From Nannocystaceae bacterium ST9 (lineage in GTDB: Bacteria > Myxococcota_A > Polyangia > Nannocystales > Nannocystaceae), in NCBI GenBank assembly GCA_048320885.1, contig JBLWFJ010000001.1, positions 1,541,642 to 1,605,641 of the forward strand: a stretch of 64,000 nucleotides of DNA. The letters run 5' to 3'. Positions 13,623 to 62,584 of the stretch are shown here, in pieces. The translations under genes were made by a program, and so were the position numbers. The notes below the pieces were generated by a model. It ran no database searches. It saw only the letters and a program-made list of their open reading frames with translations, and had not been told where the DNA came from. How positions within the stretch are numbered: position 1 is the stretch's first letter; each line of letters begins with the position of its first letter.

Positions 13623-13637
13623 GCGGATCGGGCCGAC

Positions 13638-21064: not shown

Positions 21065-21228
21065 GCAGGTCCATCCGAACGCGACCAAACAAGGCTTGCT
21101 GGAGGCAGATCTCGTGCGGTCGATCACGAAGTAGAAAGTCTTCCTGAAGGACGAAGCCCCTCGCTCGGCTGAAGGGCGGCCCAAAACGGTCGAGTCGAGC
21201 CGGCCCGCCCGGCGGTACACTCGCTAAG

Positions 21229-22905: not shown

Positions 22906-22917
22906 GCAGATGCGAAT

Positions 22918-44634: not shown

Positions 44635-44677
44635 TTCCACCGTCGCAGTCGAGTTCGCATGCGTGTTAGCCTCGCGC

Positions 44678-46360
44678 ATGCGAACTTCGACTTGGCGGGC
44701 GATCGGCGGCTCGGTGGCCGCGATCGTGATATCGACCGGCTGCGGCACCCCGAGCAGCGACGAGGGCACCAGCAGCGACTCGCTGTCCAGCAGCGACGAC
44801 GAGATCGGGACCAGCGAGTCGACCAGCGAGTCGGCGAGCGAGGACTCGAGCTCGTCGATGGACGACGCGAGCACGAGCGAGAGCGAGGCCGACTCGGGCA
44901 TCAAGTTCGACATGGCGCCGATCCCCGACGGCGAGGACACCGGTCCGCCCGGCGATCTGTGCAAGGTCGTCGACGACATGAACGCGGTCGGCGACTGCCG
45001 CGAGACCGCGCCGCCCGACGCGTTCGAGCCCGACGTGCAGTGGGACTGGTGGGGACCGAACGGCGAGGTCGAGTCGCTGGTTCCGCCGCTGGTCGCCAAC
45101 CTGACCGACGACAACGACGACGGGGCGATCGACCTGTGCGACATCCCCGACGTGATCGTGGTCGCGACCGCGTTCCCCAACAACGCGCACATCTACGTGC
45201 TCGACGGCGAGACCGGCACGCTGCACTTCCAGGTCCCGATGAACGTGGCCTGGTCGATCACGCCGGCGATCGGCGACATCGACTTCGACGGGATCCCCGA
45301 GATCGTCGCGGCGGTCGGGCCCGGGTTCGGCGGCGGCGGACAGATCGCGGCGTTCGAACACGACGGGACCCACATCTGGACGAGCAACGAGCAGTGGGAG
45401 CACAGCCAGGGCGGTTCGATCGCGCTGGCCGACCTCGACAACGACGGCGACGTCGAGATCCTCGGCGACCGGATCGTGCTCGATCACCTCGGCAACACCG
45501 TGTTCGTCGCGCCGGCCCAGCAGGGCGCGCCGCAGAACACGGCCGTGACCGCGGCCGACCTCGACGGCGACGGCGACCTCGAGGTCGTGCTCGGTCAGAG
45601 CGCCTATCACCACGACGGCGCGCAGGTCTACTTCAACGGCGGGGTGACGGCCGGGTTCCCGCAGATCGGCAACCTCGACGCCGACCCGCAGCCCGAGATC
45701 CTGGTCAGCAGCGACGCCGGCGTGACCGTGCTCGAGCACGACGGCACGACCAAGTATTTGAACGCGCATCCCGGCGGGACCTTCCCGGCGTTCCGACCGG
45801 CGGCGATCCACGACTTCGACGGCGACGACGTGGCCGAGTTCGCGGTCAGCTCGAGCTCGGTCTACTCGGTCTACGAGACCGCGCCCTCGGTGCTGTGGAG
45901 CGCGGCGATCACCGACAGCAGCGGCTGGTCGGGCGGGACCGCGTTCGACTTCGACGGCGACGGCGTGGCCGAGGCGATGTACGCCGACGAGACCCAGCTC
46001 TTCATCTTCGACGGCCAGGGCATCCCGCTGCTGACCGTGCCCCGCAGCGCGCGGACGCTGACCGAGTATCCGGTCGTGGCCGACGTCGACAACGACGGCT
46101 CGGCCGAGATCATCGTGGTCTCCGACGCCGGGTTCGACAACAACCAGACCTCGCCGACCGTGCAGGTGATCCGCGACGTCGAGGATCGCTGGATCCAGGC
46201 CCGGCGGATCTGGAATCAGCACACCTACCACGTGACCAACGTGCGCGAGGACGGGACCATCCCGCAGTTCGAGCAGCCCAACTGGGAGACGCTCAACACG
46301 TTCCGGACCAACGTGCAGATCGAGGGCGGCTCGATCTGCGATCCCGAGCCGCAGGGCTGA
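44678..46360 (+). CDS. FG-GAP/VCBS-repeat beta-propeller lipoprotein
   Basis: Start MRTSTWRAIGG...ISTGC (lipobox). Ser/Asp/Glu linker. Repeated FDGDG / DLDNDGDVE / DFDGDGVAE calcium-binding-like motifs. Confidence 0.75.
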   Translation: MRTSTWRAIGGSVAAIVISTGCGTPSSDEGTSSDSLSSSDDEIGTSESTSESASEDSSSSMDDASTSESEADSGIKFDMAPIPDGEDTGPPGDLCKVVDDMNAVGDCRETAPPDAFEPDVQWDWWGPNGEVESLVPPLVANLTDDNDDGAIDLCDIPDVIVVATAFPNNAHIYVLDGETGTLHFQVPMNVAWSITPAIGDIDFDGIPEIVAAVGPGFGGGGQIAAFEHDGTHIWTSNEQWEHSQGGSIALADLDNDGDVEILGDRIVLDHLGNTVFVAPAQQGAPQNTAVTAADLDGDGDLEVVLGQSAYHHDGAQVYFNGGVTAGFPQIGNLDADPQPEILVSSDAGVTVLEHDGTTKYLNAHPGGTFPAFRPAAIHDFDGDDVAEFAVSSSSVYSVYETAPSVLWSAAITDSSGWSGGTAFDFDGDGVAEAMYADETQLFIFDGQGIPLLTVPRSARTLTEYPVVADVDNDGSAEIIVVSDAGFDNNQTSPTVQVIRDVEDRWIQARRIWNQHTYHVTNVREDGTIPQFEQPNWETLNTFRTNVQIEGGSICDPEPQG

Positions 46361-46934: not shown

Positions 46935-47813
46935 ATGATCGACTACGACCCCAAGGCCTGGCTGCGCATCGTCGTGACCCTGCGAGGCGCCGTCGCGCCG
47001 CGCTTGATCGTCCGGGTCTCGATCGCGATCGCGTTGGGCCTGGTCGCCTGGTGGGCGCACGTGACCGCCGAGGTCGCGATCCCGCCGCTCGCCCACACGC
47101 TGATCGGCGCCGCGCTCGGCCTGCTCTTGGTGTTTCGGACCAACGCCTCGTACGGCCGCTACGTCGAGGCCCGCGAGCTGCTCGGGCGGATCGTCAACGC
47201 CAGCCGCGACCTCGCCCGTCAGGTGGTGATCTACGTCGACGATCACCCCGAGCGCGCGGCGCTGCGGGCCGACGTGCTGCGCTGGATCGGCGCGTTCTAT
47301 CGCCTGCTCGTGCAGAACGTCCGCGACGAGCGAGAGCTCGGCGAGCTCGGCGAGCGGCTGAGCGCGAGCGAGCGGGCGCTGCTCGAGCCGCTGCGCCATC
47401 GGCCTTCGGTGGTCGCGACGTGGATCGGCGTGCGCCTGCACGCCGCGCACCGGGCCGGCCACCTCGAGATCGAGCCGCTGCGGGCGATGGACGCGAACCT
47501 GACCGTGCTGGTCGCCTCGCTCGGCGGCTGCGAGCGAATTCGTCGGACGCCGGTCCCCTTCGCCTACGCCCAGCACATCAAGCTGTTCATGGTCTTGTTC
47601 TGCTACACGGTGCCCTTCGCGATCGTCGAGGCGCTGGGGGTCTACACGCCGATCGCGTCGGGCGTGCTCTCGTTCGCGCTGTTCGGGATCGACGAGATCG
47701 GCGTGGAGATCGAAGACCCCTTCGGCAGCGATCCCAACGATCTGCCGATGGAGCGGATCGGCGACACCGTCGATCTCAGCACGCGCGAGATCGTCGAGGC
47801 CGGCGAGCGCTGA
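46935..47813 (+). CDS. Bestrophin/UPF0187 family anion channel homolog
   Basis: Four predicted TM segments and overall similarity to bestrophin-like YneE proteins. Confidence 0.7.
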   Translation: MIDYDPKAWLRIVVTLRGAVAPRLIVRVSIAIALGLVAWWAHVTAEVAIPPLAHTLIGAALGLLLVFRTNASYGRYVEARELLGRIVNASRDLARQVVIYVDDHPERAALRADVLRWIGAFYRLLVQNVRDERELGELGERLSASERALLEPLRHRPSVVATWIGVRLHAAHRAGHLEIEPLRAMDANLTVLVASLGGCERIRRTPVPFAYAQHIKLFMVLFCYTVPFAIVEALGVYTPIASGVLSFALFGIDEIGVEIEDPFGSDPNDLPMERIGDTVDLSTREIVEAGER

Positions 47814-47853: not shown

Positions 47854-49374
47854 GTGCTGACTCGCCGCAAGCTGCTGACCGGCGCGGGCTTGGCCTTGAG
47901 CTTCGCGGCGCTCGGGCGGAGCCGCAGCGCGCGGGCCAGCGGGCGCTGGGGTGAGCCGATCCCCGATCCTCGCGGCGTGCTCGATCTGCCGGCGGGGTTC
48001 TCCTACGTGATCCTCGAGGAGTCCGGGCAGACGATGAGCGACGGCTATCGGATGCCCGGGCGGCCCGACGGGATGGCCTGCTTCGCGGGTCCGAGCGGCA
48101 CGCTGATCCTCATGCGCAACCATGAGAACAGCGTCGGGGCGATCGCCGAGGGGCCCTACCGCGAGGGCCAGAGCGCGCCGCCCGAGGCCTACGATCCCAA
48201 CGGGATGGGCGGCGTGTCGCGAGTGGTCGTCGACGCGCAGTGCTTCTCACGGATCTCGAGCAACATGGTGTTGATCGGATCGTCGCGCAATTGTGCGGGC
48301 GGCCCGAGCCCCTGGGGCTGGCTGAGCTGCGAGGAGACCATCCTGATCAGCGGCGAACATCGCCACGGCTACGTGTTCGTGTGCCCGATCGACGCCGACT
48401 CGGTCCGGCCGCCCGATCGCAAGCTCGGCTACGGTCGCTTCTTCCACGAGGCCGCCGCGGTCGACCCGAGCACCAACGTCGCGTACCTGAGCGAAGATCG
48501 CCCCGACGGCTGCCTCTATCGCTTCGTACCCGACGCGATCGCCGAGCCCTTCGTCGGCAAGCTGCAGGCGCTCGCGGTCGTCGGTCAGCCCGGCTACTCG
48601 ACCGGGCTGCTCGAGGTCGGCAGCGTGCTCGACATCGAGTGGATCGACATCGACGAGCCCGATCCCGATCAAGACACGCTCCGGGCCGAGGCGCATGGCA
48701 AGGGCGCGGCGGTGATCCTGCGCGGCGAAGGCATGTGGTTTCACCAACCCGACGGGTCGGACGCGGGCCAGGTGTTCTTCTCGGCGACGATCGGCGGGCC
48801 GATCGGCAAGGGCCAGATCTTCCGCCTGATCGACGGCCCCGCGCCGACGCTCGAGGTGGTGTACGGCTCGAGCGATCCCGAGGTGCTCGACATGCCCGAC
48901 AACATCACGGTCGCGCCCTGGGGCGACCTCTTCGTGGTCGAGGACGGCACGGGGACCAACTCGATCCGCTGGCTCGACGGCGCGGGCGAGCTCCACCACT
49001 TCGGCCGGACCGGCCTGAGCGAGCTGACCGGGATCTGCTTCTCGCCGGACGGCCGGGCGATGTTCGTCAACATCCAGGCGGCCGGGCTGACGCTGGTGGT
49101 GACCGGGCCCTTCGTCGACGAAGGCGGCGGCGACACGGGCGAGGGCACGAGCAGCGAGACCGGGGCGAGCACGAGCGGCTCGGGCACGGGTGGCGACTCG
49201 AGCTCGAGCGACGAGGCCGGCGCGGCGACGTCGAGCGAGGCCTCGTGCGGCTCGGCCAGCGAGGCCGACGCGAGCTGTGCGTGCTCGAGCGACGCGGGCG
49301 TGGGATCGAGTGCGCTGGCGCTGGCGGCCGCCGGCGTGGTCGCGGCCGGCCTGCGCCGCGAATCCGGCGAGTGA
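47854..49374 (+). CDS. PhoX-family protein with TAT signal and MYXO-CTERM-like tail (paralog 3)
   Basis: TRRKLLTGAGLA TAT motif. Body is homologous to paralogs 1 and 2. C-terminus SCGSASEADASCACSSDAG...AAAGVVAAGLRRESGE. Confidence 0.8.
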   Translation: MLTRRKLLTGAGLALSFAALGRSRSARASGRWGEPIPDPRGVLDLPAGFSYVILEESGQTMSDGYRMPGRPDGMACFAGPSGTLILMRNHENSVGAIAEGPYREGQSAPPEAYDPNGMGGVSRVVVDAQCFSRISSNMVLIGSSRNCAGGPSPWGWLSCEETILISGEHRHGYVFVCPIDADSVRPPDRKLGYGRFFHEAAAVDPSTNVAYLSEDRPDGCLYRFVPDAIAEPFVGKLQALAVVGQPGYSTGLLEVGSVLDIEWIDIDEPDPDQDTLRAEAHGKGAAVILRGEGMWFHQPDGSDAGQVFFSATIGGPIGKGQIFRLIDGPAPTLEVVYGSSDPEVLDMPDNITVAPWGDLFVVEDGTGTNSIRWLDGAGELHHFGRTGLSELTGICFSPDGRAMFVNIQAAGLTLVVTGPFVDEGGGDTGEGTSSETGASTSGSGTGGDSSSSDEAGAATSSEASCGSASEADASCACSSDAGVGSSALALAAAGVVAAGLRRESGE

Positions 49375-50918: not shown

Positions 50919-51410
50919 TCACTGGTTCTCGCGCCAGTTGTCGTGGTGCTCGACGCCGCCGTCCTCGTAGGTCCAGGTGATCGAGTGGAACACGAAGCTG
51001 ATCTCCTCGGTCGGGGGCTCGACCGCGGAGGCCGGGTCGATGGTGTCGGGCGAGACCCGCTTGATGCCGGCGACGCGGCCTTCGGTGAACTTGATGGTGA
51101 AGAACTGCTGGGTGGTGCCGTCGCCGGTCGGGCTCGGACGGAAGAACTTGAAGGTGCCCTCGACGATCTCGTTGTTGCACAGCGCCTTGGCCAGCAGCGG
51201 CGAGGACTTGTCGATGCGCTTGCGCAGGACGATCGGCTCGTAGGTGCGGCGGCCGGTGGCCATGCCGCTGCCCTTCTCGCGGGCCGTACGAACGGAGTCT
51301 TCGAAGTAGAGGCACTCGATCGAGTCTTCGCGACCGAGGCTGGTCTGGGTGCTCTCACCCTTGATGTCGGAGCCGTTCGCCTTGAGGTAGAGGTGTACTG
51401 TCTCGGCCAT
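50919..51410 (-). CDS. hcp: Type VI secretion tube protein Hcp
   Basis: 163 aa. MAETVHLYLKANGSDIKGES... is typical of Hcp1. Confidence 0.9.
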   Translation of the reverse strand: MAETVHLYLKANGSDIKGESTQTSLGREDSIECLYFEDSVRTAREKGSGMATGRRTYEPIVLRKRIDKSSPLLAKALCNNEIVEGTFKFFRPSPTGDGTTQQFFTIKFTEGRVAGIKRVSPDTIDPASAVEPPTEEISFVFHSITWTYEDGGVEHHDNWRENQ

Positions 51411-51551
51411 GGTGTTTCGTTGCTTTCTCGGACGGTCGGGTTGACCGACTCTCGTGGTTCGCGTTGATCTCCGCGAAGATCGGGTGCTGTCTCGGGTGCG
51501 ATGAGACGTTAGGACTCGGGTACGTTGAATGTCAAGGACGCCTGGACGCGT

Positions 51552-53270
51552 TCAAGCGCCCAGAGCCACCCTCAGCGGCAGGTCGAAACCGACCTCGAAG
51601 GGGATCGAGGCGAGCCGCGGACTGACCGTCGCGACCAGACGGATCGCGGGGCCATCGGACCCATCGACGACGCCGGCATCGAGCCGAGCACCTTCGCTGA
51701 GTCCTGGAAACAAGAACACCGTGGACGCATCGGTGAACAACTTCGCGACTTGATCGCGAGGCGTTCCGACCGGCACCTGCTCGGCGACCCACATGCCGAA
51801 GCGCACCAAACGCCCGGTCAAGATTTGGGCCGGAAGCGGCACGGCATCCTTGGATCCACGCAAGGTCGGTACGCCCGACAACGCGATCATGTCGGTGTTG
51901 CGACCGCTGCCGAGGCCCACGATACCCAACTCGGCGAGCTCGGACTGGGCCTTGATCGACAGGAACGCGGCGGTCGGAATCGTCGAACCAGCTTCGCGGC
52001 CCTTCGTGACTTCGTGCAGGCCCGGAGCCTTGAGCGATCCGTCCTTGCCCATGACCCGAGCGAATCCGCCGGTGTGCCTGAAGCTGGCCGCGAGCATGGC
52101 CGCGAGCACGAACACCGGATTGCCGAACACGCTGCGGCGAGCCGTGCCGGCCCCTTCGACGGCGACGACCGGATCGTTGAAGACCACGCTCATCCAGCGT
52201 GAGACCTCGTCCGATCGCAGATCGGCCCAACCTTCGGGCAGCGCCGCGCTGGGGTCTGGCTTGGCGTCGCGCAGGACCTGGCCGACGTCCTCGGCGTCCT
52301 CGACGTCGAACAACGCCGGACCGACGCCGACGACGACCGGCGCGTGGAGGTCTTCGGCCAGGGACGCGAGCGCCTGAAATTGTCCGGCGACCTGCGAGCG
52401 ATGATCGAAGCGATCGAACACGAAGAACGCGTCGGGCCGGTTCATCGCTTCGTCGTCGAGGCAGGCCTTCATCGCGGCCTCGATCTGATCGCTACCGGCG
52501 TCGACGACCTCGACCAGCATGCCGGAGCGCTTGGGGCACTGCTCGACGACCAGCTTGAGCCCGCGCCAGAGCGCCTCGGGCTCGGTCACCGCGGGGTGAT
52601 TGAGGATCGCGTTGACGGCCCCGAACACGGCCGTCTCGACCAGCTCGCGAGCGCGGCGAGGCACCGGCGTGCCCTTGTCGGCGACCTTGCTGGTGCTGCC
52701 GCGGATCGCCGTGATGAACGAGTCGACCGCACGCTTGCTCTCGGTCTGCCGCGCGACGCCACGCTCGAGCAGCTCGTCGACCAGCTCGCCCGACGCGGGC
52801 TTGGACTCGGTGTCTCGGTCGCGGGCGGCCGACTCGACGGCGGGCGCCGGCGTGGGCTCGCTCGCGGACTCGGGCGGCTCGCTCAGCAACTTGCCGAGCT
52901 CGCTGGCCAGCGGACCCTCGCCGATCAACGCGACCACGCGGGCGACCGCGGCCTCGGCCGAGGGCCGACGCGAGCTCGGACCCGCGACCTCGTCGGCCAG
53001 CTTGCGCAGCTCGCCGAGCACCGGGACGGTCGCGAGCACATGCTTGATCGCGTAGTGCTTGAGCTCGGCGAAGTTCAGCTCGACCTCGTGCTTGCCGGCG
53101 GCTCCGAGCGCGGGCCCGATGTCGAGCTTGGCCCCGAGCTTGGCGGCAGTGAACGCGGCCGCGAAGCCCTCGCCATCGAGCACGAAGCGACGGCCGGTGG
53201 GCGCGTCGGACAGCGCCCCGAGCAGCAGCCAATGAACGTGGGCAGAGTCGCGTGCGGAAGCTTCGGTCAT
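51552..53270 (-). CDS. T6SS sheath-like protein; apparent TssB-like N-terminus fused to a divergent TssC-like C-terminus
   Basis: The N-terminus matches the TssB pattern (VELNFAELKHYAIKHVLATVPVLGELRKL vs tssB VSLRFKSMKDFTPEGVVSQVPELQKLLDL). After a Pro/Glu linker the body aligns by eye with the TssC core (LHAPVVVGVGPALFDVEDAEDV vs AHAPFLGNAGPQMFGIESYEEL). Confidence 0.5.
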   Translation of the reverse strand: MTEASARDSAHVHWLLLGALSDAPTGRRFVLDGEGFAAAFTAAKLGAKLDIGPALGAAGKHEVELNFAELKHYAIKHVLATVPVLGELRKLADEVAGPSSRRPSAEAAVARVVALIGEGPLASELGKLLSEPPESASEPTPAPAVESAARDRDTESKPASGELVDELLERGVARQTESKRAVDSFITAIRGSTSKVADKGTPVPRRARELVETAVFGAVNAILNHPAVTEPEALWRGLKLVVEQCPKRSGMLVEVVDAGSDQIEAAMKACLDDEAMNRPDAFFVFDRFDHRSQVAGQFQALASLAEDLHAPVVVGVGPALFDVEDAEDVGQVLRDAKPDPSAALPEGWADLRSDEVSRWMSVVFNDPVVAVEGAGTARRSVFGNPVFVLAAMLAASFRHTGGFARVMGKDGSLKAPGLHEVTKGREAGSTIPTAAFLSIKAQSELAELGIVGLGSGRNTDMIALSGVPTLRGSKDAVPLPAQILTGRLVRFGMWVAEQVPVGTPRDQVAKLFTDASTVFLFPGLSEGARLDAGVVDGSDGPAIRLVATVSPRLASIPFEVGFDLPLRVALGA

Positions 53271-53522
53271 GATCTCGTCGCTCGTTGGTGTCCGATCGTC
53301 GGCGAAGCTGTCGATCCACTCGCGAATCGATCCAGCGCCTCGGTTCGCGCGGCCAGGGTATCCGCAACCAACCGGCAGTCCAAGCCCGATTCCACGTGAA
53401 AAACCGAGTCAGCCGCCCGCGATCGAGAAATCTCTGCGATCGTCGACACGCGTCGACGAGGTGACGGGGCGCTCGCAGCCCCGTGGGCGGGTGGTTTCGA
53501 GCGCCCCCGATCGTCGCGCACC

Positions 53523-56500
53523 TCAAGTCAGCTTGCTGGCGGCCTCCGGGTCGATTCGGCACAGTCGCTCGAACGCCGAGTCGCTGGTCAGCGGGGGCTT
53601 GGCCTTCTCGGCGTCGGCCCGAGCGCGGACCAGCCCTTGCAGGCAGCGCGTCGCGAGCTCGGGCTCCCAGCGATCGAGCCCGCGCTCGTCGAGCTCGCGG
53701 GCGAGGCCGCCGAACAGGCCGAGCGCGACACGGGGCGCTCCGGCCCCAGCCATCTCCGCCAGTGCCAATCGGATCAGCATACGGTTGCGATCATTGCTGG
53801 CGGAATCGATCAGCGCTTGAACCTGCTTGGCCGCGTCGCCGAACTTGCCGCCGCCGGCCGCCTTCTTGGCTTCGTCGAGCGCCGCGACAACGTCTTCGGG
53901 CAGACCCCCCGGACCGCCGCCGCCTCCCGAGCCGCCCGCGTCGACGAACACGTCGTTGTCGATCCAGGCCTTGGCGTCGGGGCTGCACATGGTCGTCCCG
54001 TTGCCGAAGTTGAGCGTCATGACCATCGGCATCCGACCGATCAGCGAGTGCACGCCGTCAATCACCGCGTCGCGTGCGTCACCGTGGCCGAGCTGCCCGA
54101 GCGCGAGCGCGCTGAGCCAGTGCAGGTCCATCCAGAACCGAAAGCGCATCAGCGACGACTCGGTCTCTTCGAGGACGTCGGCCCACTTGCCGTTGGCCTT
54201 CATCAGCTCGAGCCGCTTGAGCAGGTCGGGCGGCGGCGCGGGGATCTGGGTGTTGCCGTTGGGCTGCGCGGGCGGTGGGTTGACGATGTGCAGGTAGAGA
54301 CCCTGACGCATCAATCGATAGGCCAGCGGATCGCGGAGGTTGGCCCGGCGCATCAGGTTGGCCGTGCTGATCAGATCGCCGCCGACCTTGGCGAGGTACT
54401 GGACCGCCTCCTCGGCGGACTTGGGCGCGGCTTGAGCCGCGGGCATCGGTGCACCGCCGCCGGCAGGCGCCGCTGCTGGGGCCGGCGCGGCGCTGGGTTG
54501 AGGTGGTGGCGGCGGGGCAGCGGGGGGCGGTGGCGGTGGCGGTGCGGCCGGCTTGGGCGGCTCGGGCACCGACATCTCGAGCCGGCTGATCGCGTCGCGC
54601 AACCCTCGGGTCGCGGGCGGGCTCTCGAACTTCTGATTGATGACGCCGAACAGGTGCTTGGCCGCGAGGCCGAGCTTGACGATCGACTCGCGCTCGGCGG
54701 CCGTCGGCTTGTGCTCGCCGACCTCGCGCTCGAGCTGATCGAGCAGCCAGCTCATCGCGTTCGACCGCCGGCGCTCCTTGTCCTTGGGCGGCTGCATGTC
54801 GTCCCAGAACCGATCGCAGAGCTCGGCGAGCATCGCGAGGCCCTGGACCAACCCCTCGAACCCGCGCTGCCTGTGCAGCGCGCGAGCGAGGTAGGCCGCG
54901 ATCAAGAGGTCCTTGCTCCTCGTCTGCAGCAGCTTGGTCGAGATCCGCTGGACGCTCGGCCAGTCCGGCTCGCCGCCGCTGACCGACTCGAGCTTGCCGA
55001 TCTCGTTGCGGACGGCCTCGTGATCGGGGTCGTACTTCGCGTCTTCGCCGGCCGGCTTGGCCTCGGAGATCGGCTTGATCCACGCCTCGGCGAGCGCGGC
55101 CGGATCGAAGGCGGGCTTGGCCGGCTCGGCCGCGGGCGCCGACGCGGGTGCAGACGCGGCGGGCTGAGGCGCGGGTGCGGACGCGCTCGGTGCAGGTGCG
55201 GGCTGGGGCGCCGCGGCGGGCTGGGGCGGCGGAGCGGGAGGTGGCGCGGCGACCTGAGGCGCCGACATCTTGGCCCGGTTGATCGCGTCGCGCAGCCCTC
55301 GGGTGGCCGGGCCCGACTCGACGAAGCGAGCGTTGAACACCCCGAACATGTGCTTGGCGACCTCTTCGAGATCGGCGAGCGGCTTGCTGTCCTTGGCCGT
55401 CGGGGTCAGATCGGTCAGCACCCGCTCGACCGGCTCGAAGAGCCAGGTGATCGCGTTGGAGCGCCGGCGCTCCTTGTTGGGATGCACGTCGTCCCAGAAG
55501 CGATCGCAGAGCTCGGCGATCAACGCGAAGCCGGTGACCAGCCCGTCGAGCCCCTCGAGTTCGAAGAGCGCGCGGGCGAGGTAGGTCGCGAGCACGAGAT
55601 CCTTGCTCTTCGTCTCGAGCAGCTTGCCGGTGATCCGCTTGACCGCGATCCAGTCGGGCTGGACGCCCGAGACCGACTGCAGCTTGTCGATCTCGTTGCG
55701 CGCCTCGGTGTGCTCGGCGTCGTAGCGCGTGTCTTCACCGACCTTGCTCGGCCCGGGGATCGGCTCGAGCCACTTGGCCACGCGCGGCGTCCAGGGCTGA
55801 GCCGGCGCTGCGGAGGTGGCTGCGGGCGGTGGTGGAGGAGGTGGCGGGGGTGGAGGTGGTGGTGGAGGGGGCGGAGGTGGTGGAGGTGGTGGCGGTGCAG
55901 CGACCGGCGCAGGCTCGGGTGCCGGAGGCGTCTCGATGACGGGCGGCGCCTCGATGGGTGCGGAAGTCGATGCCTCGACGGGCGCCGGTTCAGGCTCGGG
56001 TTGCGGAGGCGGAGCAGCCACGGGCTCGGGCGCAGGCGCGGGCTCGGGCGCTGGTGTGCCGGCGGGCGCAGAACCGCCAGCGAGCGCCGCCGCGAGGGCG
56101 GCCTGCTCGTCGGCGGACGCGGGCGGCAAGTTCAACTCGAGCCGCTTGATGCCATCGGTCAGCGAACGCATGCTGGGCGCTTCGTCGCCGAAGCGATCGC
56201 GGACGATCCTCGCCAGCTCGGGTCCATACTCGCCGAGCAACGCGATCGCGATTCGATCCTTCGCACCGACCTGCATGCTGCCGCTCGCCGCCTCGAAGCG
56301 ACCGATGAACCAAGACAGCGCGTTGGCTCGCCCGCGCAGCCGCTTGACCGGCGGGAACCCGTCGTCCCAGTACTTCTCCATCAGCCCGTTGAGCAGGCGC
56401 AACCCGGCCGCGAGCCCGCCGAGCCCCTCGAGCTCGTACCAGGCCCACGCGACGTAGCAGGCCAGCAACACGTCCTTGCTGACGGCGCGCAGCAAGTCGC

Positions 56501-56681
56501 TGCCGCCCTGAGCCACGCGCGGCCACTCGGGCAGCCCACCCATCGGCGACTCGATCTTGGTGACCTCGCGGCGGAGGTCTTCGTGACGAGGATCGTAGTT
56601 GGCGTTCTCGCCCGCCGGGCTCGCGCCGGGGATCGGTGCGAGCAAGGGAGCGACGCGAGCTTCGAGGGTCTTGCGGTCCAT
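53523..56681 (-). CDS. tssA: TssA-family protein with three tandem ImpA_N domains and Pro-rich linkers
   Basis: Three copies of the ImpA_N pattern (PIpG...GEdarYDpdheavRnEI.kLeS..G..pDW..V.r....LL.T.SKDL..A.YLArAL....G..GL..G...L.eLcdRFWDD). A 24-residue polyproline run (seen as a poly-G codon run on the + strand around 55816-55900). TssA/VasJ-like C-terminus. Confidence 0.8.
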   Translation of the reverse strand: MDRKTLEARVAPLLAPIPGASPAGENANYDPRHEDLRREVTKIESPMGGLPEWPRVAQGGSDLLRAVSKDVLLACYVAWAWYELEGLGGLAAGLRLLNGLMEKYWDDGFPPVKRLRGRANALSWFIGRFEAASGSMQVGAKDRIAIALLGEYGPELARIVRDRFGDEAPSMRSLTDGIKRLELNLPPASADEQAALAAALAGGSAPAGTPAPEPAPAPEPVAAPPPQPEPEPAPVEASTSAPIEAPPVIETPPAPEPAPVAAPPPPPPPPPPPPPPPPPPPPPPPPAATSAAPAQPWTPRVAKWLEPIPGPSKVGEDTRYDAEHTEARNEIDKLQSVSGVQPDWIAVKRITGKLLETKSKDLVLATYLARALFELEGLDGLVTGFALIAELCDRFWDDVHPNKERRRSNAITWLFEPVERVLTDLTPTAKDSKPLADLEEVAKHMFGVFNARFVESGPATRGLRDAINRAKMSAPQVAAPPPAPPPQPAAAPQPAPAPSASAPAPQPAASAPASAPAAEPAKPAFDPAALAEAWIKPISEAKPAGEDAKYDPDHEAVRNEIGKLESVSGGEPDWPSVQRISTKLLQTRSKDLLIAAYLARALHRQRGFEGLVQGLAMLAELCDRFWDDMQPPKDKERRRSNAMSWLLDQLEREVGEHKPTAAERESIVKLGLAAKHLFGVINQKFESPPATRGLRDAISRLEMSVPEPPKPAAPPPPPPPAAPPPPPQPSAAPAPAAAPAGGGAPMPAAQAAPKSAEEAVQYLAKVGGDLISTANLMRRANLRDPLAYRLMRQGLYLHIVNPPPAQPNGNTQIPAPPPDLLKRLELMKANGKWADVLEETESSLMRFRFWMDLHWLSALALGQLGHGDARDAVIDGVHSLIGRMPMVMTLNFGNGTTMCSPDAKAWIDNDVFVDAGGSGGGGGPGGLPEDVVAALDEAKKAAGGGKFGDAAKQVQALIDSASNDRNRMLIRLALAEMAGAGAPRVALGLFGGLARELDERGLDRWEPELATRCLQGLVRARADAEKAKPPLTSDSAFERLCRIDPEAASKLT

Positions 56682-56930
56682 GATCGAGGTCCGAGGAAGC
56701 GGAGCAGAGACGAGAAAGGCCCCCTACGCGAATAGGGAGCCCTGAAGCTGCTCACCGAAGAGCAATGACCCGAAGGGTCGAGCGAAGGCGAAGCCAGAGG
56801 CTTGCGAGGAGGTGATGAGCGAGCGAAGGCGAAGCGAACAGGCGCGAAGCACTTGCGAGGAGGGGGTCCCGTCCCGGCTTCGCCGGGACGGGGGAGGGCG
56901 GCGGAACGCCCTCCCTCAAACGTAGTCCAA

Positions 56931-56965
56931 GGAGTGATGAAAGGCCGAAGGCCTTCCATCACTCC
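56931..56965 (-). terminator. Perfect 16-bp-stem hairpin overlapping the tssC stop
   Basis: ggagtgatgaaaggcc-gaa-ggccttccatcactcc. It is followed on the operon strand by two further GC hairpins (gagggcggcggaacgccctc; cccgtcccggcttcgccgggacggg). Confidence 0.4.
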
Positions 56966-58434
56966 TTGTCGAGCTTGCCGACGAGCGAGAGCGTGAACGA
57001 GGCGCCCATGTACTTGAAGTGCGGGCGGACGAGGATCGAGCAGCGGTACCAGCCGGGCTGGCCCTCGACGTCCTCGACGTTGATGCGAGCGGTCCGCAGC
57101 GGACGGCGCGAGCGGACGGCCGGCGCCGGGTTGTCCATGTCGGCCACGTACTGACCGATCCACAGGTTGAGCTCGCGCTCGAGATCGCCGCGCTCCTTCC
57201 ACGAACCGATCTGCTCGCGCTGCAGCACCTTGAGGTAGTGCGAGAGCCGAGTGATCACGAACATGTAGGGCAGCTGAGTGCCGAGCCGGTAGTTGGTCTC
57301 GGCCGCCTTGCCCTCGGGGGTGTTCGGGTAGACCTTGGGCTTCTGGACCGAGTTGGCCGAGAAGAAGGCCGCGTTGTCGCTGCCCTTGCGCATGGTCAAG
57401 CCGATGAAGCCCTCTTCGGACATCTCGAACTCGCGCCGCTCGGTCAGCTGGCACTCGACCGGGAGCTTGGTCTGGATCTCGCCCTGCGCCTTGTACTGGT
57501 GCAGGGGCAGGCTCTCGACCGCGCCGCCCGAGGTCGGCCCGATGATGTTCGGGCACCAGCGGAACTTCGCGAAGCTGTCGGCGATGCGGGTGGTCAGCGC
57601 GACCGAGCTGTAGCCCCACAGGTACGCGTCGTGCTTGGCGATCACGTCCTCTTCGAAGTCGAACGACTTCACCGGGACGGTCTCCTTGCCGTAGGGCATG
57701 CGCAGCATGATCCGCGGCGCACACAGGCCGACGTAGCGGGAGTCCTCGCTCTCGCGGAAGCCGTGCCAGCGGGCGTACTGCGGACCCTCGAACAGGCTCT
57801 GGAGATCCTTGAGGCGCGGCAGCTCCTCGTAGCTCTCGATCCCGAACATCTGCGGGCCGGCATTGCCGAGGAAGGGCGCATGGGCCATGGTCGCGACCGC
57901 GGCGCAGTTCTGCAGCAGCTGAATGTCCTGCGGCCCCGAGCCGAACTCGTAGAGCGAGCACATCACGCCGTAGGGCCGGCCGCCGAAGGTGCCGTACTCG
58001 GCCGAGTAGACCGTGCGGTAGAGGCCCGACTTGACGATCTCGGGCGCGTCTTCGAAGTCCTCGAGCAGCTCGTCCTTCTGGACCGAGAGCACGTTGACGC
58101 GGACGTTCTCGCGGAAGTCGACGTTGTCGATCACGTACTTGAGGCTCCGCCAGGCCGACTCCATCTTCTGGAAGGTCGCGTTGTGGAGGATCTCGTTGAC
58201 CTGCGAGCTGATCCGGGCGTCGAGTTCGGCGATCATCGCCTCGACTGCGGCCTTGTCGATCTTCTTGGCGTCGCGGCCCTTGAGCATCTCGGCGATGAAG
58301 GCCTGGACGCCCTGGCGGGTGACGTCGTAGGCCTCGTCCCCGCGCTTCATCTTGGTCTCGGACAGGATGGAGTCGAGCAGCGAGCCTTCTTCGAGGCCAG
58401 CTCCCGCGCCTTGCTTTTCGGTTTCGGTACTCAT
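56959..58434 (-). CDS. tssC: T6SS contractile sheath large subunit TssC
   Basis: 491 aa, VipB/EvpB family (GLYRTVYSAEYGTFGGRPYG, DSRYVGLCAPRIMLRMPYG). Confidence 0.9.
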   Translation of the reverse strand: MSTETEKQGAGAGLEEGSLLDSILSETKMKRGDEAYDVTRQGVQAFIAEMLKGRDAKKIDKAAVEAMIAELDARISSQVNEILHNATFQKMESAWRSLKYVIDNVDFRENVRVNVLSVQKDELLEDFEDAPEIVKSGLYRTVYSAEYGTFGGRPYGVMCSLYEFGSGPQDIQLLQNCAAVATMAHAPFLGNAGPQMFGIESYEELPRLKDLQSLFEGPQYARWHGFRESEDSRYVGLCAPRIMLRMPYGKETVPVKSFDFEEDVIAKHDAYLWGYSSVALTTRIADSFAKFRWCPNIIGPTSGGAVESLPLHQYKAQGEIQTKLPVECQLTERREFEMSEEGFIGLTMRKGSDNAAFFSANSVQKPKVYPNTPEGKAAETNYRLGTQLPYMFVITRLSHYLKVLQREQIGSWKERGDLERELNLWIGQYVADMDNPAPAVRSRRPLRTARINVEDVEGQPGWYRCSILVRPHFKYMGASFTLSLVGKLDKE

Positions 58435-58489
58435 CGGGAATCTTCTCGTGCGGCGAGTGAGTGGTTGGTGATCCGATTCGACGAAGGGT

Positions 58490-58975
58490 TCAGCCTTCGC
58501 TGGCGCCGAGCTCGGCCAGCAGCTTGTCGCGGGCTTCCGAGTCCTCGAGGATCGACTGGATCTTCTTGCGGAAGGCCGGGATGTTGCCGAGCGGGCCCTT
58601 CAGCGCGTTGAGGGCGTTGCGGAGATCGAGCAGCTTCTGCAGCTCGGGCACCTGCGAGACCACGCCCTCGGGCGTGAAGTCCTTCATGCTCTTGAACCTG
58701 AGGCTGACCGGCATCTCCGCGCCGGCCTCTCCCGACAGCTTGTCCGGTACGTTGATGTCGACGCCGACCTTGTACTCGGCCAGCACGTCGTTGAAATTGT
58801 CCTTGTCGACGTTGATCGCCTTGCGATCCTCGACGGGAGTGTCGTCCTTCTTGCCGGTGAAGTCGCCCAGCATGAGGATCTTGAGCGGGAGCTCGACATC
58901 CTCCGTGGCGTTGCCGGCCGGCTTGTAGACGATGTTGACGCGTTCCTTCGGGGCGACGGATCCTTCTTTGGCCAT
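58490..58975 (-). CDS. tssB: T6SS contractile sheath small subunit TssB
   Basis: Start MAKEGSVAPKERVNIVYKP at 58975 (the ORF extends to 59125). VipA pattern ...LPLKILMLGDFTG...MKDFTPEGVVSQVPELQKLLDLRNAL. Confidence 0.85.
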   Translation of the reverse strand: MAKEGSVAPKERVNIVYKPAGNATEDVELPLKILMLGDFTGKKDDTPVEDRKAINVDKDNFNDVLAEYKVGVDINVPDKLSGEAGAEMPVSLRFKSMKDFTPEGVVSQVPELQKLLDLRNALNALKGPLGNIPAFRKKIQSILEDSEARDKLLAELGASEG

Positions 58976-59149
58976 CTCGGCGCGCAGCGTATCACTTCTA
59001 CTCCGCGCTTCGCGAGCGTTGATCGAGGATCTCGACAGGTTGTCGGGGTCACGGGCGAACCACCACGATCGCTCGGCCTCGCGGTCGGGCCGAGTGCGAA
59101 AAAGAGCGCGATCTGCATTGCACACGTCGCGAACACGTAATCTCCGACA

Positions 59150-59870
59150 CGGGAGGGGCTGAGATAGGCGCTGGCTCTGGCTGAGATAGGGAGGCTGAGA
59201 TAGGGAGGCCGTCCGCCGGCCTCCCCCTCGAGCTTCGCTCGAGGAACCCCCTCCACGCGGCTCTGCCTACGTGCAGTGTTGCGTGGTTCCCCTGCTCGGG
59301 CCGTCTCGCCCTCGCGGGGAATGGACAGCGGGTTCGGCTTCGCCTGCCCTTGGTTGCGACTTCGTTGGGGCGATCTTTGGCGGGCTGGTCTGCTTCGGCG
59401 AGGCTGGTCTGCTTCGGCGAGGGCTGGTCTGCTTCGGCGAAGATTGGTCTGCTTCGGCAAAGGTCGGTCTGCTTCGGCGAAGGGTTGGTCTGCTTCGGCA
59501 AAGGTCGGTCTGCTTCGGCAAAGGTCGGTCTGCTTCGGCGAAGAATGCGAGGGGAGGCGAAGCCGAACCCGTTGTCCATTCCCCGCGAGGGCGAGACGGC
59601 CCGAGCAGGGGAACCACGCAACACTGCACGTAGGCAGGGCCGCGTGGTGGGGGTTCCTCGGCTCGCGGAGCGAGCTGAGGGGGAGGCCGGCGGACGGCCT
59701 CCCTATCTCTGTCCATTCCCCGCGAGGGCGAGACGGCCCGAGCAGGGGAACCACGCAACACTGCACGTAGGCAGAGCCGCGTGGTGGGGGTTCCTCGGCT
59801 CGCGGAGCGAGCTGAGGGGGAGGCCGGCGGACGGCCTCCCTGAGATGGGCCGCCCACCCCCCACGCTCGC
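59150..59870. repeat. Composite repeat region in the clpV-tssB intergenic space: about 140-bp element in three copies (one inverted, two direct) flanking an 8x tandem array of a 19-21-bp unit
   Basis: Copy A at about 59150-59350 is the reverse complement (about 90% identity) of copy B at about 59555-59700. Copy C at about 59706-59855 is a direct repeat of B. The tandem array at 59391-59545 has units like GGTCTGCTTCGGCGAAG(g/a)(n)(t). CTGAGATAGGGAGG short repeats sit at the A end. Confidence 0.85.
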
Positions 59871-59875
59871 GAACC

Positions 59876-62584
59876 TCACCCAAAATCGAAGCGCCAATCC
59901 CCCTCCGGCGAGAGCCCGATATCCAACTTGGGCGGCACTTCGCCGTCGGCCATGTACTCGAGCAGCACGCGGGCGAGCGCGGGCATCAGCGAGGCTCGCA
60001 GGGTGTGGTCGACGTTGCGGGCGCCGGTGTCGGCGTCGGTGCAGCGGCGGACGAGCTCGTCGATCAGCTCGGTGCTGTAGGTGACCTCGAGCTCGTGGGT
60101 GTCCTGCAGGCGCTTGGCCAGCTTGCCGAGCTTGAGCAGGGCGATGTCTCGCATGATCTCGGCGCTGATCGGGCGGAAGGGCACGATCGTCATGCGGGCG
60201 AGCAGGGCCGGCTTGAAGTGGCTGCTGAGCGCGGGCCGGATCGCCTCGACGACGGCCTCCTTGGTCGGCGTCTCTTCGGCCTCGTAGGCGCGCATGATCG
60301 TGTCCGAGGCGAGGTTCGAGGTCAGGATGATGACGGTGTTCTTGAAGTCGATGGTCCGACCTTCGCCGTCGTTGAGCATGCCCTTGTCGAACACCTGGTA
60401 GAACAGGTTCATGACGTCGAGGTCGGCCTTCTCGCACTCGTCGAGCAGCACGACCGAGTAGGGTCGCTGGCGGACGGCCTCGGTCAGCAGGCCGCCCTCG
60501 CCGTAGCCGACGTAGCCGGGCGGCGATCCGATCAGCCGGCTGACCGTGTGCTTCTCTTGGAACTCGCTCATGTTGATGGTGGTCATGAAGCGCTCTCCAC
60601 CATAGAGTTGATCGGCGAGCGTCGTGGCCATCTCGGTCTTGCCGACGCCGCTGGGGCCGACGAAGAGCAGCACGCCGATCGGCGCTCGTGGGTCGCGGAC
60701 GCCGGCGTAGGCCATCCGCACGGTCTCGGCGACGACCTTGCTGGCCGGCTCTTGACCCTTGACCCGCTTGGCCAGCACGTCCTCGAGCTCGAGCACGGCG
60801 CCGATCGTGTCGGACTTCATCTTGCCGACCGGGATGCCCGTCCAGGCCGCGACGACCTTGGCGACCACGTCGGCGTCGCACTCGTGGTGGACGAGCGGAT
60901 CGTTGTCGCCGCGGACCTCGGCGATCTTGGCGAGCGCGGCCTCGACGTTGCCGCGCAGGGCCTCGACGTCGACGGGCGGCGCGGCGTCGAGAGCGGGCGG
61001 GGGCACCGGCTCGCCCTCGGGCGGCGCGGCGGCCTGCTCGGCCCCGCGCAGGACCACGCAGGCCTCGTTGAACGCCTTGACGGCGTCGCGCTCGGCCTCC
61101 CAGCGGATGGTCAGATCGACGACCTGCTGACGGACGGCCGCGATCTCGCCGAGCAGCTCGGCGTACTCGGTCTTGTCGACGTCGATGTGCTCGGCGATGT
61201 CGCGCTCGAGCGCGACGCGCTGGCGGTCGAGCGACTCGAGCTCGAGCTCGAGCTCCTGGACCTGCTGGGGCTTGGCGCCCTGCTCGATCTTCACCCGCGC
61301 GGCGGCGGTGTCGAGCAGATCGACGGCCTTGTCGGGCAGCTGCCGGCCCGAGATGTAGCGACCCGAGAGCTGCGCCGCCGCGACCACGGCCTCGTCGCGG
61401 ATCGTCACGCCGTGGGCCTTCTCGTAGGTCGAGGCGATCCCGCGGAGCATGACGATCGCATCGTCGACGCTCGGCTCGTCGACCTTGACCGGCTGGAAGC
61501 GACGCTCGAGCGCGGGGTCTTTTTCGAAGTACTTCTTGAACTCGGTCCAGGTCGTGGCGGCGATCGTCCGCAGCTCGCCACGAGCCAGCGCCGGCTTGAG
61601 CAGGTTGGAGGCATCGTTGCCGCCTGCGCCACCGCCCGCGCCGATCATCGTGTGGGCCTCGTCGATGAAGCAGATGATCGGCGTCGGCGAGGCCTTGACC
61701 TCGGAGATGACCGCCTTGACCCGCTTTTCGAACTCGCCCTTGACGCTGGCGCCGGCCTGCAAGAGACCCATGTCGAGGCTGATCAGCTCGACGTTCTTGA
61801 GCAGATCGGGGACCTCGCCCTTGACGATCGCGAGCGCCAGACCCTCGACCAGCGCGGTCTTGCCGACACCCGGCTCGCCGACGATGATCGGGTTGTTCTT
61901 GCGCCGGCGGGCGAGGATGTCGATGCACTGGCGAATCTCGCGATGCCGGCCGAAGATCGGATCGATCTCGCCGCGCCGGGCCGCGGCGGTGAACGAGATC
62001 GTGAACCGACCGATCGCGCTGTCGCCCCCGGGCGCGCTCGGGCCCGGGCCGCCCGGACCACCACCGCCCGCGCTGGTCTCCCCGCCGGTGCCGACCGCGG
62101 TCGGCCGCTCGTCGAGCTCGTTGGAGTTGCGGACGATGCTGTCGAAGTCGCGGCGCAGGACCTCGGTGTCGACCGCCTCGATCTCCGGGAACTCCTCGGC
62201 GGTGTAGCGAGACGAGCGCTCGCAGAACTGCATGAGCAGATGCCCGCTGCGCAGCGCCGTGACCCCGTAGAGCAGCGAGGCGATCGTCCAGGCGTCCTCG
62301 ATCCACTGGAAGAGCGCCTCGGCGAACACCGGCCGGCCGGCGTTGCCCTTCTTCATGGCTTGCAGCGTGCGATCGATCCGGCCGAGCAGGCGCTGGCGGT
62401 CCTGGCCGAAGTGCTGGAGGATCTGCGTGGCGTCGCCGTCGTCCTGCTCGATGATCTTGAGCAGCAGCAGCTCGGGGACGATCTCGTAGAACTGACCGGA
62501 GGCGGCACGACCGACCGCGGCTTCGAGCATGCCAGTGCAGACCGGGCTGAGCCGACGGACGAGGATCTTGGGTTCGACGCGCAT
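59876..62584 (-). CDS. clpV: T6SS AAA+ ATPase ClpV (TssH)
   Basis: 902 aa. ClpB-like N-domain, two AAA modules (GEPGVGKTALVEGLA; LFVGPSGVGKTEMA) and the middle coiled coil. Confidence 0.9.
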   Translation of the reverse strand: MRVEPKILVRRLSPVCTGMLEAAVGRAASGQFYEIVPELLLLKIIEQDDGDATQILQHFGQDRQRLLGRIDRTLQAMKKGNAGRPVFAEALFQWIEDAWTIASLLYGVTALRSGHLLMQFCERSSRYTAEEFPEIEAVDTEVLRRDFDSIVRNSNELDERPTAVGTGGETSAGGGGPGGPGPSAPGGDSAIGRFTISFTAAARRGEIDPIFGRHREIRQCIDILARRRKNNPIIVGEPGVGKTALVEGLALAIVKGEVPDLLKNVELISLDMGLLQAGASVKGEFEKRVKAVISEVKASPTPIICFIDEAHTMIGAGGGAGGNDASNLLKPALARGELRTIAATTWTEFKKYFEKDPALERRFQPVKVDEPSVDDAIVMLRGIASTYEKAHGVTIRDEAVVAAAQLSGRYISGRQLPDKAVDLLDTAAARVKIEQGAKPQQVQELELELESLDRQRVALERDIAEHIDVDKTEYAELLGEIAAVRQQVVDLTIRWEAERDAVKAFNEACVVLRGAEQAAAPPEGEPVPPPALDAAPPVDVEALRGNVEAALAKIAEVRGDNDPLVHHECDADVVAKVVAAWTGIPVGKMKSDTIGAVLELEDVLAKRVKGQEPASKVVAETVRMAYAGVRDPRAPIGVLLFVGPSGVGKTEMATTLADQLYGGERFMTTINMSEFQEKHTVSRLIGSPPGYVGYGEGGLLTEAVRQRPYSVVLLDECEKADLDVMNLFYQVFDKGMLNDGEGRTIDFKNTVIILTSNLASDTIMRAYEAEETPTKEAVVEAIRPALSSHFKPALLARMTIVPFRPISAEIMRDIALLKLGKLAKRLQDTHELEVTYSTELIDELVRRCTDADTGARNVDHTLRASLMPALARVLLEYMADGEVPPKLDIGLSPEGDWRFDFG

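Follow-up and report, generated by a model that had tools for sequence, protein, structure and literature searches.

What does a type VI secretion TssA gain from carrying three sheath-docking heads instead of one? The question is raised by a minus-strand ORF, 53523..56681, of the 64,000-nucleotide stretch of DNA analysed here (the window), which encodes such a protein in an Enhygromyxa relative of the Nannocystaceae (Myxococcota). The ORF is intact, begins with ATG and codes for 1052 residues, and a sequence comparison showed the start to be kept in relatives (MDRKTLEARVA / MNRKTLEARVA / MDKQTVDQRAA). Two plus-strand ORFs, 53637..56735 and 55816..56457 (poly-Gly), were rejected as genes, being antisense shadows of this GC-rich gene, and a promoter and terminator scan gave nothing over background. 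The gene is made up as follows:

53523..56681, minus strand: tssA, three Nt1 (ImpA_N) units followed by Nt2 and CTD, 1052 aa (ORF, Pfam, TIGR03362)
56067..56681, minus strand: unit 1, Nt1/ImpA_N head, aa 1-205 (ImpA_N 89.3 bits, full profile)
55806..56066, minus strand: linker 1, Pro/Ala-rich, predicted disordered, holding the P24 run, aa 206-292 (AF2 pLDDT)
55824..55895, minus strand: P24 run, aa 263-286 (sequence)
55251..55805, minus strand: unit 2, Nt1/ImpA_N head, aa 293-477 (ImpA_N 100.9 bits)
55116..55250, minus strand: linker 2, Ala/Pro-rich, predicted disordered, aa 478-522 (pLDDT <50 throughout)
54549..55115, minus strand: unit 3, Nt1/ImpA_N head, that of the ancestral complete TssA, aa 523-711 (ImpA_N 115 bits, TIGR03362)
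54417..54548, minus strand: linker 3, Pro/Ala-rich with P7 and P5 runs, predicted disordered, aa 712-755 (sequence, AF2)
53523..54416, minus strand: Nt2 (aa ~756-911), Gly-rich loop (914-924), CTD (929-1052) and stop codon (T6SS_VasJ, 165 bits)

Pfam finds three ImpA_N (PF06812) stretches in the protein (E 1e-88), and each unit singly matches the whole profile with the scores given above, the cut-off being 26.9 bits. They are followed by a T6SS_VasJ match (PF16989, aa 773-1015), which bears out an earlier note on this DNA that had read three ImpA_N domains and a TssA C-terminal region from the letters. The NCBIfam TssA profile TIGR03362 scores 567 bits, with aa 531-1016 covering profile positions 2-474 of 476; the best stretch of TIGR03363 covers only positions 5-135 of 353, i.e. 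the TssA head. Judged by these profiles, unit 3 and the C-terminus alone form a complete “long” TssA, to which two further units have been added in front. The internal repeats proposed in the note are supported by blastp of protein segments for all three unit pairs (~175 aa each): units 2 and 3 share 54% amino acid identity (E 6e-71), units 1 and 3 40% (E 4e-45) and units 1 and 2 37.5% (E 2e-38), and the DNA identity of units 2 and 3 is just 72.6%. The whole protein searched against itself gave the identity match alone.

The AF2 model has three confident helical heads (unit 1 pLDDT ~90) and disordered linkers; the arrangement of the heads in it is not informative (pTM 0.31). The Nt1 head is matched by 6hs5 in both sequence and Foldseek searches. 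For the Nt2-CTD region, sequence searches of the PDB matched 6g7c, 6g7b and 4yo3, and Foldseek placed 6g7c and 4yo3 on Nt2-CTD and 6g7b on Nt2 (TM 0.88).

Among known systems, the closest in domain make-up are the long TssAs (TsaC) of EAEC (TssA), Aeromonas hydrophila (TssA2), Vibrio cholerae (VasJ) and P. aeruginosa (TssA2), which have the same Nt1, flexible linker, Nt2 and VasJ-type CTD and share with the ST9 protein a gene adjoining tssBC, the full-length TIGR03362 match and the folds 6g7c, 6g7b and 4yo3. The described long TssAs, however, have 470-540 residues and one Nt1 (PMC11106082), whereas the ST9 protein has 1052 residues, three Nt1 units and much longer Pro-rich linkers. Short TssAs (TsaB), such as P. 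aeruginosa TssA1 and B. cenocepacia TssA, share the Nt1/ImpA_N head (6hs5) but have a C-terminal domain of their own, which is unmatched in ST9 TssA, and a role in baseplate priming. TagA/TsmA likewise reuse an ImpA_N head at the sheath end (PMC7545191, PMC13584744), yet TagA stands as a protein by itself and has a distinct C-terminal part, while the extra heads of ST9 TssA lie within the TssA chain and come from TssA's own head. By its domains, the ST9 protein is thus a TssA of the long (TsaC) type, and its C-terminus sets it apart from short TssAs and from TagA/TsmA.

A row of similar units with a low-complexity tract between them could also result from mis-assembly of a repetitive region, a reading to which we assign negligible probability. 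The units differ at 46-62% of protein and at least 27% of DNA positions, too much for collapse or expansion by an assembler; with 38-54% amino acid identity they are old paralogues and hence no assembly duplicates. Three units are also present in seven further sequences, which are independent of one another and come from different genome or metagenome assemblies (L001, L011, L002/P0001, L009, L010, L014 and the partial P0002), of which L009 is from cultured Enhygromyxa salina. For the architecture, unit divergence and these seven sequences effectively refute an artefact; in its favour stands the length of the proline tract, since the count of exactly 24 comes from one assembly. The tract, on the other hand, spans only 72 nt and is an imperfect repeat, and runs of 13 and 14 prolines occur at the same position in independent assemblies of relatives (L001, L011), so that the presence of a long proline tract there is genuine.

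The three-unit form is therefore real, and a small group of marine-type myxobacteria has conserved it. A scan of genome contigs gave one locus and a scan of metagenomes five. Homologue searches returned 14 proteins for the full-length query, its Pro-rich words having probably swamped the candidates, and two fragments for unit 2 alone, which makes the latter search unsuitable for counting three-unit proteins. An exact-sequence look-up gave no match for the 1052-residue protein, and no three-unit protein is listed among the 50%-identity representatives, a weak negative, as the known ones evidently stand under shorter cluster members. Two-unit TssAs are common and three-unit ones rare: ~80 of the best 150 clusters at 50% identity are two-unit proteins, and all members that carry a taxon name are Myxococcota. 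Comparing repeat number among relatives, as the earlier note had recommended, thus showed three units to recur and two to be widespread. Its premise of one ImpA_N per typical TssA is true of the characterised proteins and agrees with reviews (PMC11106082, PMC13584744) but does not fit this large two-unit family, and the “one Nt1” picture of these reviews does not cover Myxococcota.

The two-unit proteins (720-820 aa; for example P0003, P0008, P0015 and P0017) belong to the same family and have the same Nt2-CTD as ST9 TssA; P0008 is encoded within a complete canonical T6SS cluster. Their unit 1 is orthologous to ST9 unit 1 and their unit 2 to ST9 units 2 and 3. They have one head fewer, shorter linkers (median ~16 aa between HMM envelopes) and no long proline runs. 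In a tree of the units (bootstraps 100/100/92/84), unit 1 pairs with unit 1 of P0003 (bootstrap 100), and the unit 2 sequences form a clade of their own (100) nested in the clade of second units (84). This topology shows unit 2 to be the extra copy defining the three-unit clade: a two-unit ancestor gained its third unit when the C-proximal one was duplicated. Given the two-unit family and the unit tree, the step seen here is from two to three heads, not from one to three. Deeper in the family, this stepwise history is complicated by concerted evolution or repeated duplication, as the units of several two-unit relatives are sisters.

Since the tree points to internal duplication of the TssA head, we discarded fusion with a TagA-like gene as the source of the extra heads. 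A related proposal is that the extra heads stand in for an ImpA_N accessory protein encoded separately, such as a TagA/TsmA-like terminator or anchor, or that they are intramolecular decoys timing sheath engagement. Long-TssA systems often encode TagA as a second ImpA_N protein (PMC7545191, PMC13584744), and the window contains no ImpA_N ORF other than tssA. However, this absence concerns the 64-kb window only, the extra units derive from TssA's own head and not from a TagA-like fusion, and the protein has no membrane-anchoring C-terminal part, VasJ covering the whole C-terminus. We therefore consider this proposal very unlikely.

The units are separated by Ala/Pro-rich linkers, and the proline run in the first of them is uninterrupted and exactly 24 residues long, as the earlier note had stated. 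Its location of the tract, 55816-55900, was about right but slightly wide compared with the true span given above. P24 is the only homopolymer run of at least eight residues in any frame of the window, besides its own antisense shadow. In the AF2 model, confidence is low (pLDDT <50) at aa 207-263 and 282-292 in linker 1 and at aa 478-522 in linker 2, and the linkers are accordingly predicted to be disordered. Linker 1 is 61.5% identical to that of L001, with indels, and at the position of linker 2 L001 has a tandem array of 5.8 copies of an 18-nt unit (AAAPTP). The run at the P24 site is 24, 14, 13, 10 or <5 residues long among relatives. The linkers thus appear to evolve through tandem duplication and slippage, so that their sequence and the length of the proline run drift while the extended Pro-rich character stays. 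The tract had been described as prone to slippage; its length does vary in this way, but it is no perfect microsatellite, with matches of 76% at period 3 and 81% at period 21 in the tandem repeat.

Most of the codons in P24 are ones that the ST9 genome seldom uses (CCA 11, CCT 6, CCG 4 and CCC 3 times in the run): CCA and CCT make up 71% of it, compared with 8% of the proline codons in 15 other genes of the window, and the proline runs of relatives show the same bias. Together with the stalling of ribosomes at three or more consecutive prolines, which is relieved by EF-P (PMC4176338, PMC5811046), this bias might suggest that the run is chiefly a translational throttle, an EF-P-dependent stall that sets TssA dosage or separates the co-translational folding of head 1. 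Yet the bias fits equally well with slippage of CCA/CCT-rich units or with avoidance of frameshift-prone C/G homopolymers. Moreover, the relatives L009 (E. salina) and L014 have the same architecture without a run of at least five prolines at this site, so that a long run is dispensable, and a throttle is in our view distinctly unlikely.

Comparison with an 83%-identical relative indicates purifying selection on each of the three heads, with dN/dS values of 0.16, 0.16 and 0.135 for units 1, 2 and 3; none of the heads contains an indel, whereas the linkers are rich in them. Values of about 0.15 rule out degenerate, non-functional repeats. In an alignment of unit sequences, each unit class has 87-102 invariant columns out of 193, and 13 fixed differences are particular to unit 1, including YVAWAW versus YLARAL. 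These differences suggest that the heads are not mere redundant copies.

The way in which TssA engages the six-fold sheath remains a matter of debate, since TssA rings are 5-, 6- or 16-fold symmetric. The distal sheath end is capped by long TssA (PMC6745524, PMC13584744). Nt1 binds specifically to cognate TssBC sheaths, and current models put the Nt1 heads around the outside of the ring, held by flexible linkers (PMC11106082). By analogy, ST9 TssA is probably a functional long-class distal sheath cap with multivalent, long-reach docking, whose heads were gained stepwise. Its CTD would oligomerise, as in the solved homologues, into a ring that caps the TssBC sheath where it grows distally. Heads increased from one to two in an older ancestor and then to three through copying of the C-proximal head, and they are strung on Pro/Ala-rich linkers of ~45-87 residues, predicted to be disordered, in which P24 would form a stiff polyproline-II rod about 7 nm long. 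Three times as many docking heads per subunit and a longer reach would allow multivalent, possibly multi-ring attachment to the sheath end. As Nt1 is the published docking module for cognate TssBC, we infer a multivalent cap as the most likely consequence; oligomerisation, location at the cap, docking by every head and the rod-like role of the spacer are carried over from these models. That extra heads would provide more sheath and baseplate contacts, as the earlier note proposed, is a reasonable extension of the published Nt1 work.

We found no description of a three-headed TssA in the literature searched. The natural two- and three-headed forms offer a ready test of whether cap processivity and sheath length depend on head number, valency and linker reach. 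Since a genome assembly exists for one of the carriers, the named species Enhygromyxa salina, such tests may be feasible by genetics.

The finding also points to an undescribed sheath-like paralogue next to tssA. The genes lie on one strand in the order clpV-tssB-tssC-tssA-(sheath-like)-hcp, and no baseplate or membrane-complex genes were found in the 64-kb window:

59876..62584, minus strand: clpV, sheath-recycling AAA+ ATPase (AAA_2, AAA_lid_9, ClpB_D2-small)
58490..58975, minus strand: tssB, sheath small subunit, start inferred at MAKEGS... (T6SS_VipA, E 9e-55)
56959..58434, minus strand: tssC, sheath large subunit, directly upstream of tssA (VipB and VipB_2, E 1e-122)
51552..53270, minus strand: single-chain TssB-TssC-like paralogue, 572 aa, directly downstream of tssA (weak Pfam VipB)
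50919..51410, minus strand: hcp, tube subunit, 163 aa (T6SS_HCP, E 2e-24)

The paralogue has a confident predicted sheath fold (AF2 pLDDT 89; Foldseek matches to the TssC chains 5n8n, 5urw and 3j9g, E 1e-13), and its relatives also score with VipA; an exact-sequence look-up gave no match for the Pseudenhygromyxa member, P0203. In other contractile injection systems, extra sheath paralogues form specialised rings. The heads might thus divide the labour and dock different partners, one extra head serving the paralogue as a specialised first or last sheath ring and the others TssBC, the baseplate or the membrane complex, which we regard as unlikely. The 13 unit-1-specific differences favour this reading, as do the long separation of unit 1 from units 2 and 3 (38-40% identity) and the separate conservation of each unit class. 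Docking of Nt1 to the sheath is partner-specific in Pseudomonas (PMC11106082). Further, all five three-unit loci with a readable downstream gene have the sheath-like gene placed between tssA and hcp, while in L004, the closest two-unit relative, hcp directly follows tssA. In an extended and still less likely version for the Enhygromyxa-type T6SS, the paralogue would be a starter or terminal ring with one dedicated TssA head, the other heads would bind TssBC and the proline rods would space the rings; the number of heads and the diversity of sheath subunits would, in that case, have evolved together. Against divided labour, the co-occurrence amounts to a single phylogenetic event in one clade, with no independent replicates, and the sheath-like family is found with two-unit TssAs too, on the same contig in P0256 and P0008. 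The sheath-like gene of Polyangiales and Sandaracinaceae is part of an Fha/kinase module located apart from tssA.

The tssA gene (53523..56681, minus strand) is an intact ORF of 1052 aa with an ATG start. In a window of 68% G+C, its frame has a GC3 of 0.86, matching the signature of real genes; the long plus-strand ORFs at 53637..56735 and 55816..56457 (poly-Gly) are antisense shadows of it. Pfam assigned three stretches of the product to PF06812 (ImpA_N, E 1e-88) and aa 773-1015 to PF16989 (T6SS_VasJ). Scanned singly, units 1, 2 and 3, counted from the N-terminus, had whole-profile ImpA_N scores of 89.3, 100.9 and 115 bits (cut-off 26.9 bits), and the C-terminal 297 aa a VasJ score of 165 bits. 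The NCBIfam profile TIGR03362 (TssA, VasJ type) covers aa 531-1016 with its positions 2-474 of 476, so that unit 3 and the C-terminus already make up a complete canonical TssA, to which units 1 and 2 have been added. The three full-profile PF06812 matches and the VasJ/TIGR03362 C-terminus thus bear out the triplicated ImpA_N ahead of a TssA C-terminal region proposed in an earlier note, and the polyproline spacer it described also has the claimed length, with exactly 24 uninterrupted residues (P24; aa 263-286, 55824..55895).

An AlphaFold2 model, built from a 13-sequence alignment (mean pLDDT 80, pTM 0.31), divides the protein as follows:

Domains of the window TssA in the AlphaFold2 model
aa 1-205: head 1, helical, pLDDT ~90
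aa 207-292: linker 1, predicted disordered
aa 293-477: head 2, helical, pLDDT ~90
aa 478-522: linker 2, predicted disordered
aa 523-711: head 3, helical, pLDDT ~90
aa 712-753: linker 3, predicted disordered
aa 756-911: Nt2-like domain, predicted folded
aa 914-924: Gly-rich loop, predicted disordered
aa 929-1052: C-terminal helical domain, predicted folded

Because the pTM is low, the model makes no prediction of how the domains sit relative to each other. Foldseek searches against the PDB matched Nt2-CTD (6g7c) and Nt2 (6g7b, TM 0.88) of Aeromonas hydrophila TssA, the EAEC TssA fragment 4yo3 and the Burkholderia cenocepacia Nt1 (6hs5); sequence-level PDB matches were consistent with these.

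Self-alignment upheld the internal repeats. In segment-wise BLASTP over ~175 aa, units 2 and 3 are 54% identical (E 6e-71), units 1 and 3 40%, and units 1 and 2 37.5%; the DNA of units 2 and 3 shows 72.6% identity. This divergence excludes an assembly duplication as the origin of the units. Compared with an 83%-identical relative from a Myxococcales MAG (L001), dN/dS is 0.16 for units 1 and 2, 0.135 for unit 3 and 0.13 for the C-terminal part, and none of the three units has an indel, whereas the three linkers are 61-74% identical and do contain indels. An alignment of the units from five or six three-unit proteins has 193 columns; each unit class on its own keeps 87-102 of them unchanged, 30 are the same in all classes, and 13 carry fixed differences separating unit 1 from units 2 and 3.

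A comparison of repeat number among relatives, as the earlier note had suggested, yielded seven further three-unit sequences, one of them partial.

Three-unit TssA proteins: identity to the window protein, length and linker 1
Window: P24
L001: 83%, 1050 aa; P13
L011: 85%, ends at contig edge; P6 and P14
P0001 (locus L002): 63%, 1084 aa; (PAEAKPEPP)n, longest run P4
L009 (Enhygromyxa salina, GCA_002994615.1): 61%, 1029 aa; (AEPPPV)n, without a run of five or more prolines
L010: 67%, 1087 aa; P9, P10, P9
L014: 64%, 1071 aa; (PEPVA)n
P0002 (Enhygromyxa sp.): partial, N-terminally cut, at least two units; P6, P8, P10, P9

The unit profile, run on 1.84 billion representatives at 50% identity, matched 6235 proteins. 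Among the best 150, about 80 are two-unit proteins (720-820 aa) and three-unit proteins are absent, a weak negative, since the known three-unit proteins must hide behind shorter cluster representatives. Our own domain count over the fetched set gave 91 two-unit, 71 one-unit and 3 three-unit proteins; members with taxon names belong to Myxococcota, Nannocystaceae or Myxococcales.

In a neighbour-joining tree of units (100 bootstraps), P0003, the nearest protein with two units, has its unit 1 next to unit 1 of the three-unit proteins (support 100), and its unit 2 falls in one group with their units 2 and 3 and with P0059 (support 84). Unit 2 and unit 3 are each monophyletic (support 100 and 92). 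These groupings indicate that the third head is a copy of the C-proximal head, made in a two-headed ancestor; for the branching of P0003 relative to this duplication, the two possible orders have similarly low support (24 against 32). In deeper branches of the family, the two units of one and the same protein pair with each other in several cases (P0037, P0019, P0031), a pattern that implies either duplication more than once or concerted evolution.

Linker 1 is proline-rich in all three-unit proteins, with unconserved sequence, and the length variability that had been expected of the tract is seen between relatives (e.g. P24, P14, P13). In TRF, the P24 tract is an imperfect repeat of period 3 (76% matches) or 21 (81%), and the L001 linkers contain near-perfect arrays of 18 nt x5.8 and 27 nt x5.5, so that the linkers change by tandem duplication and slippage. 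CCA and CCT make up 17 of the 24 codons of the tract (71%), against 8% of proline codons in 15 other window genes and 17% in the rest of tssA. L001, L010 and L011 show this preference in their proline runs too (CCA 10/14 in L011). It may stem from slippage of CCA/CCT-rich units, from avoidance of frameshift-prone C/G homopolymers or from translational tuning. A polyproline-II helix rises ~3.1 A per residue, so that P24 in this conformation would span roughly 7 nm. Three or more consecutive prolines stall ribosomes and require EF-P (PMC4176338, PMC5811046).

Long TssA proteins have 470-540 aa and are built from a single Nt1, an Nt2 and a ring-forming CTD; their Nt1 heads are flexible, lie at the ring periphery and bind specifically to the cognate TssBC sheath (PMC11106082). 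[quoted passage not shown] The window protein departs from them in size and number of heads. By homology, it would be expected to act likewise at the distal end, with each subunit presenting three docking heads on tethers that are long and extended, which would provide multivalent, longer-reach sheath attachment. Given the 13 positions at which unit 1 consistently differs, the heads may bind different partners. In structural papers and in a 2026 review, TssA has a single Nt1, and a full-text search for more than one ImpA_N gave only papers on two separate ImpA_N proteins; the sequences themselves are public, with plain TssA or VasJ annotations.

The T6SS genes of the window (50919..62584) are limited to six:

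59876..62584, minus: clpV
58490..58975, minus: tssB
56959..58434, minus: tssC
53523..56681, minus: tssA, between tssC and the sheath-like gene
51552..53270, minus: divergent sheath-like gene
50919..51410, minus: hcp

The 64-kb window contains no second ImpA_N ORF and no baseplate or membrane-complex genes, tssEFGJKLM or vgrG, and the genes flanking the clusters in L002, L009 and L010 are likewise not T6SS-related, so that the T6SS genes of the three-unit clade would be scattered over the genome. The two-unit TssA P0008, in contrast, is encoded within a full T6SS cluster.

In the single-chain sheath-like product (572 aa, weak Pfam VipB match), a disordered stretch (aa ~135-200) separates a TssB-like N-terminus from a TssC-like body. 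Its family comprises >100 proteins, mostly from Myxococcota; more distant members also match T6SS_VipA at the N-terminus, and the members scanned had no match to Pfam VipB_2. The AF2 model of the window product is confident (pLDDT 89, pTM 0.85) and aligns over ~450 columns to TssC chains in the sheath structures 5n8n, 5urw (M. xanthus) and 3j9g (E ~1e-13). In all five three-unit loci readable there, the gene lies between tssA and hcp (13708-15393 in L001, 13846-15537 in L002, 10001-11674 in both L009 and L010), whereas hcp directly follows tssA in the two-unit locus L004. It is also present in L007 and L008, shares one contig with a two-unit TssA, and in Polyangiales and Sandaracinaceae MAGs belongs to an Fha - unknown - sheath-like module adjoined by a protein kinase gene. 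A functional tie between this paralogue and the extra head is possible, the association being seen in one clade. Full-text literature on TssB-TssC fusions and TssC paralogues yielded no description of it.

A repeat-rich insertion of ~700 nt between clpV and tssB (59102..59813) has no counterpart in the syntenic L001 (gap ~80 nt). It comprises two direct 137-nt copies (99% identical, 59573-59841), an apparent inverted copy, seen by eye, near 59210-59330 and, between these, eight tandem 20-nt units TGGTCTGCTTCGGCGAAGGT (59386-59545); the palindrome CTTCGGCGAAG, exact or with one base changed, recurs in most of these units. The insertion may represent a MITE-like element, or else a regulator-binding array that lies upstream of tssB. 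L001 has ~1.37 kb of extra DNA (12279..13650) between tssA and the sheath-like gene, where the window has a gap of ~190-250 nt. Directly downstream of hcp, L010 encodes two ~1550-aa Ser/Thr-kinase and FG-GAP proteins (12334..21674), and L002 has a kinase gene near its T6SS cluster.

Elsewhere in the window, a four-gene GTPase-associated conflict system (21229..28405, plus strand) encodes GT4-conflict+EAD1, GASH, DO-GTPase2 and GAP1-N1+EAD1. Its ORFs do not pass a combined filter of GC3 >= 0.80, GC2 < 0.62 and >= 100 codons, and may accordingly lie on a foreign island. Three PhoX alkaline-phosphatase paralogues are clustered on the plus strand (41375..42982, 43069..44634, 47854..49374), and among them lie genes for an FG-GAP repeat protein (44351..46360) and a bestrophin (46935..47813).
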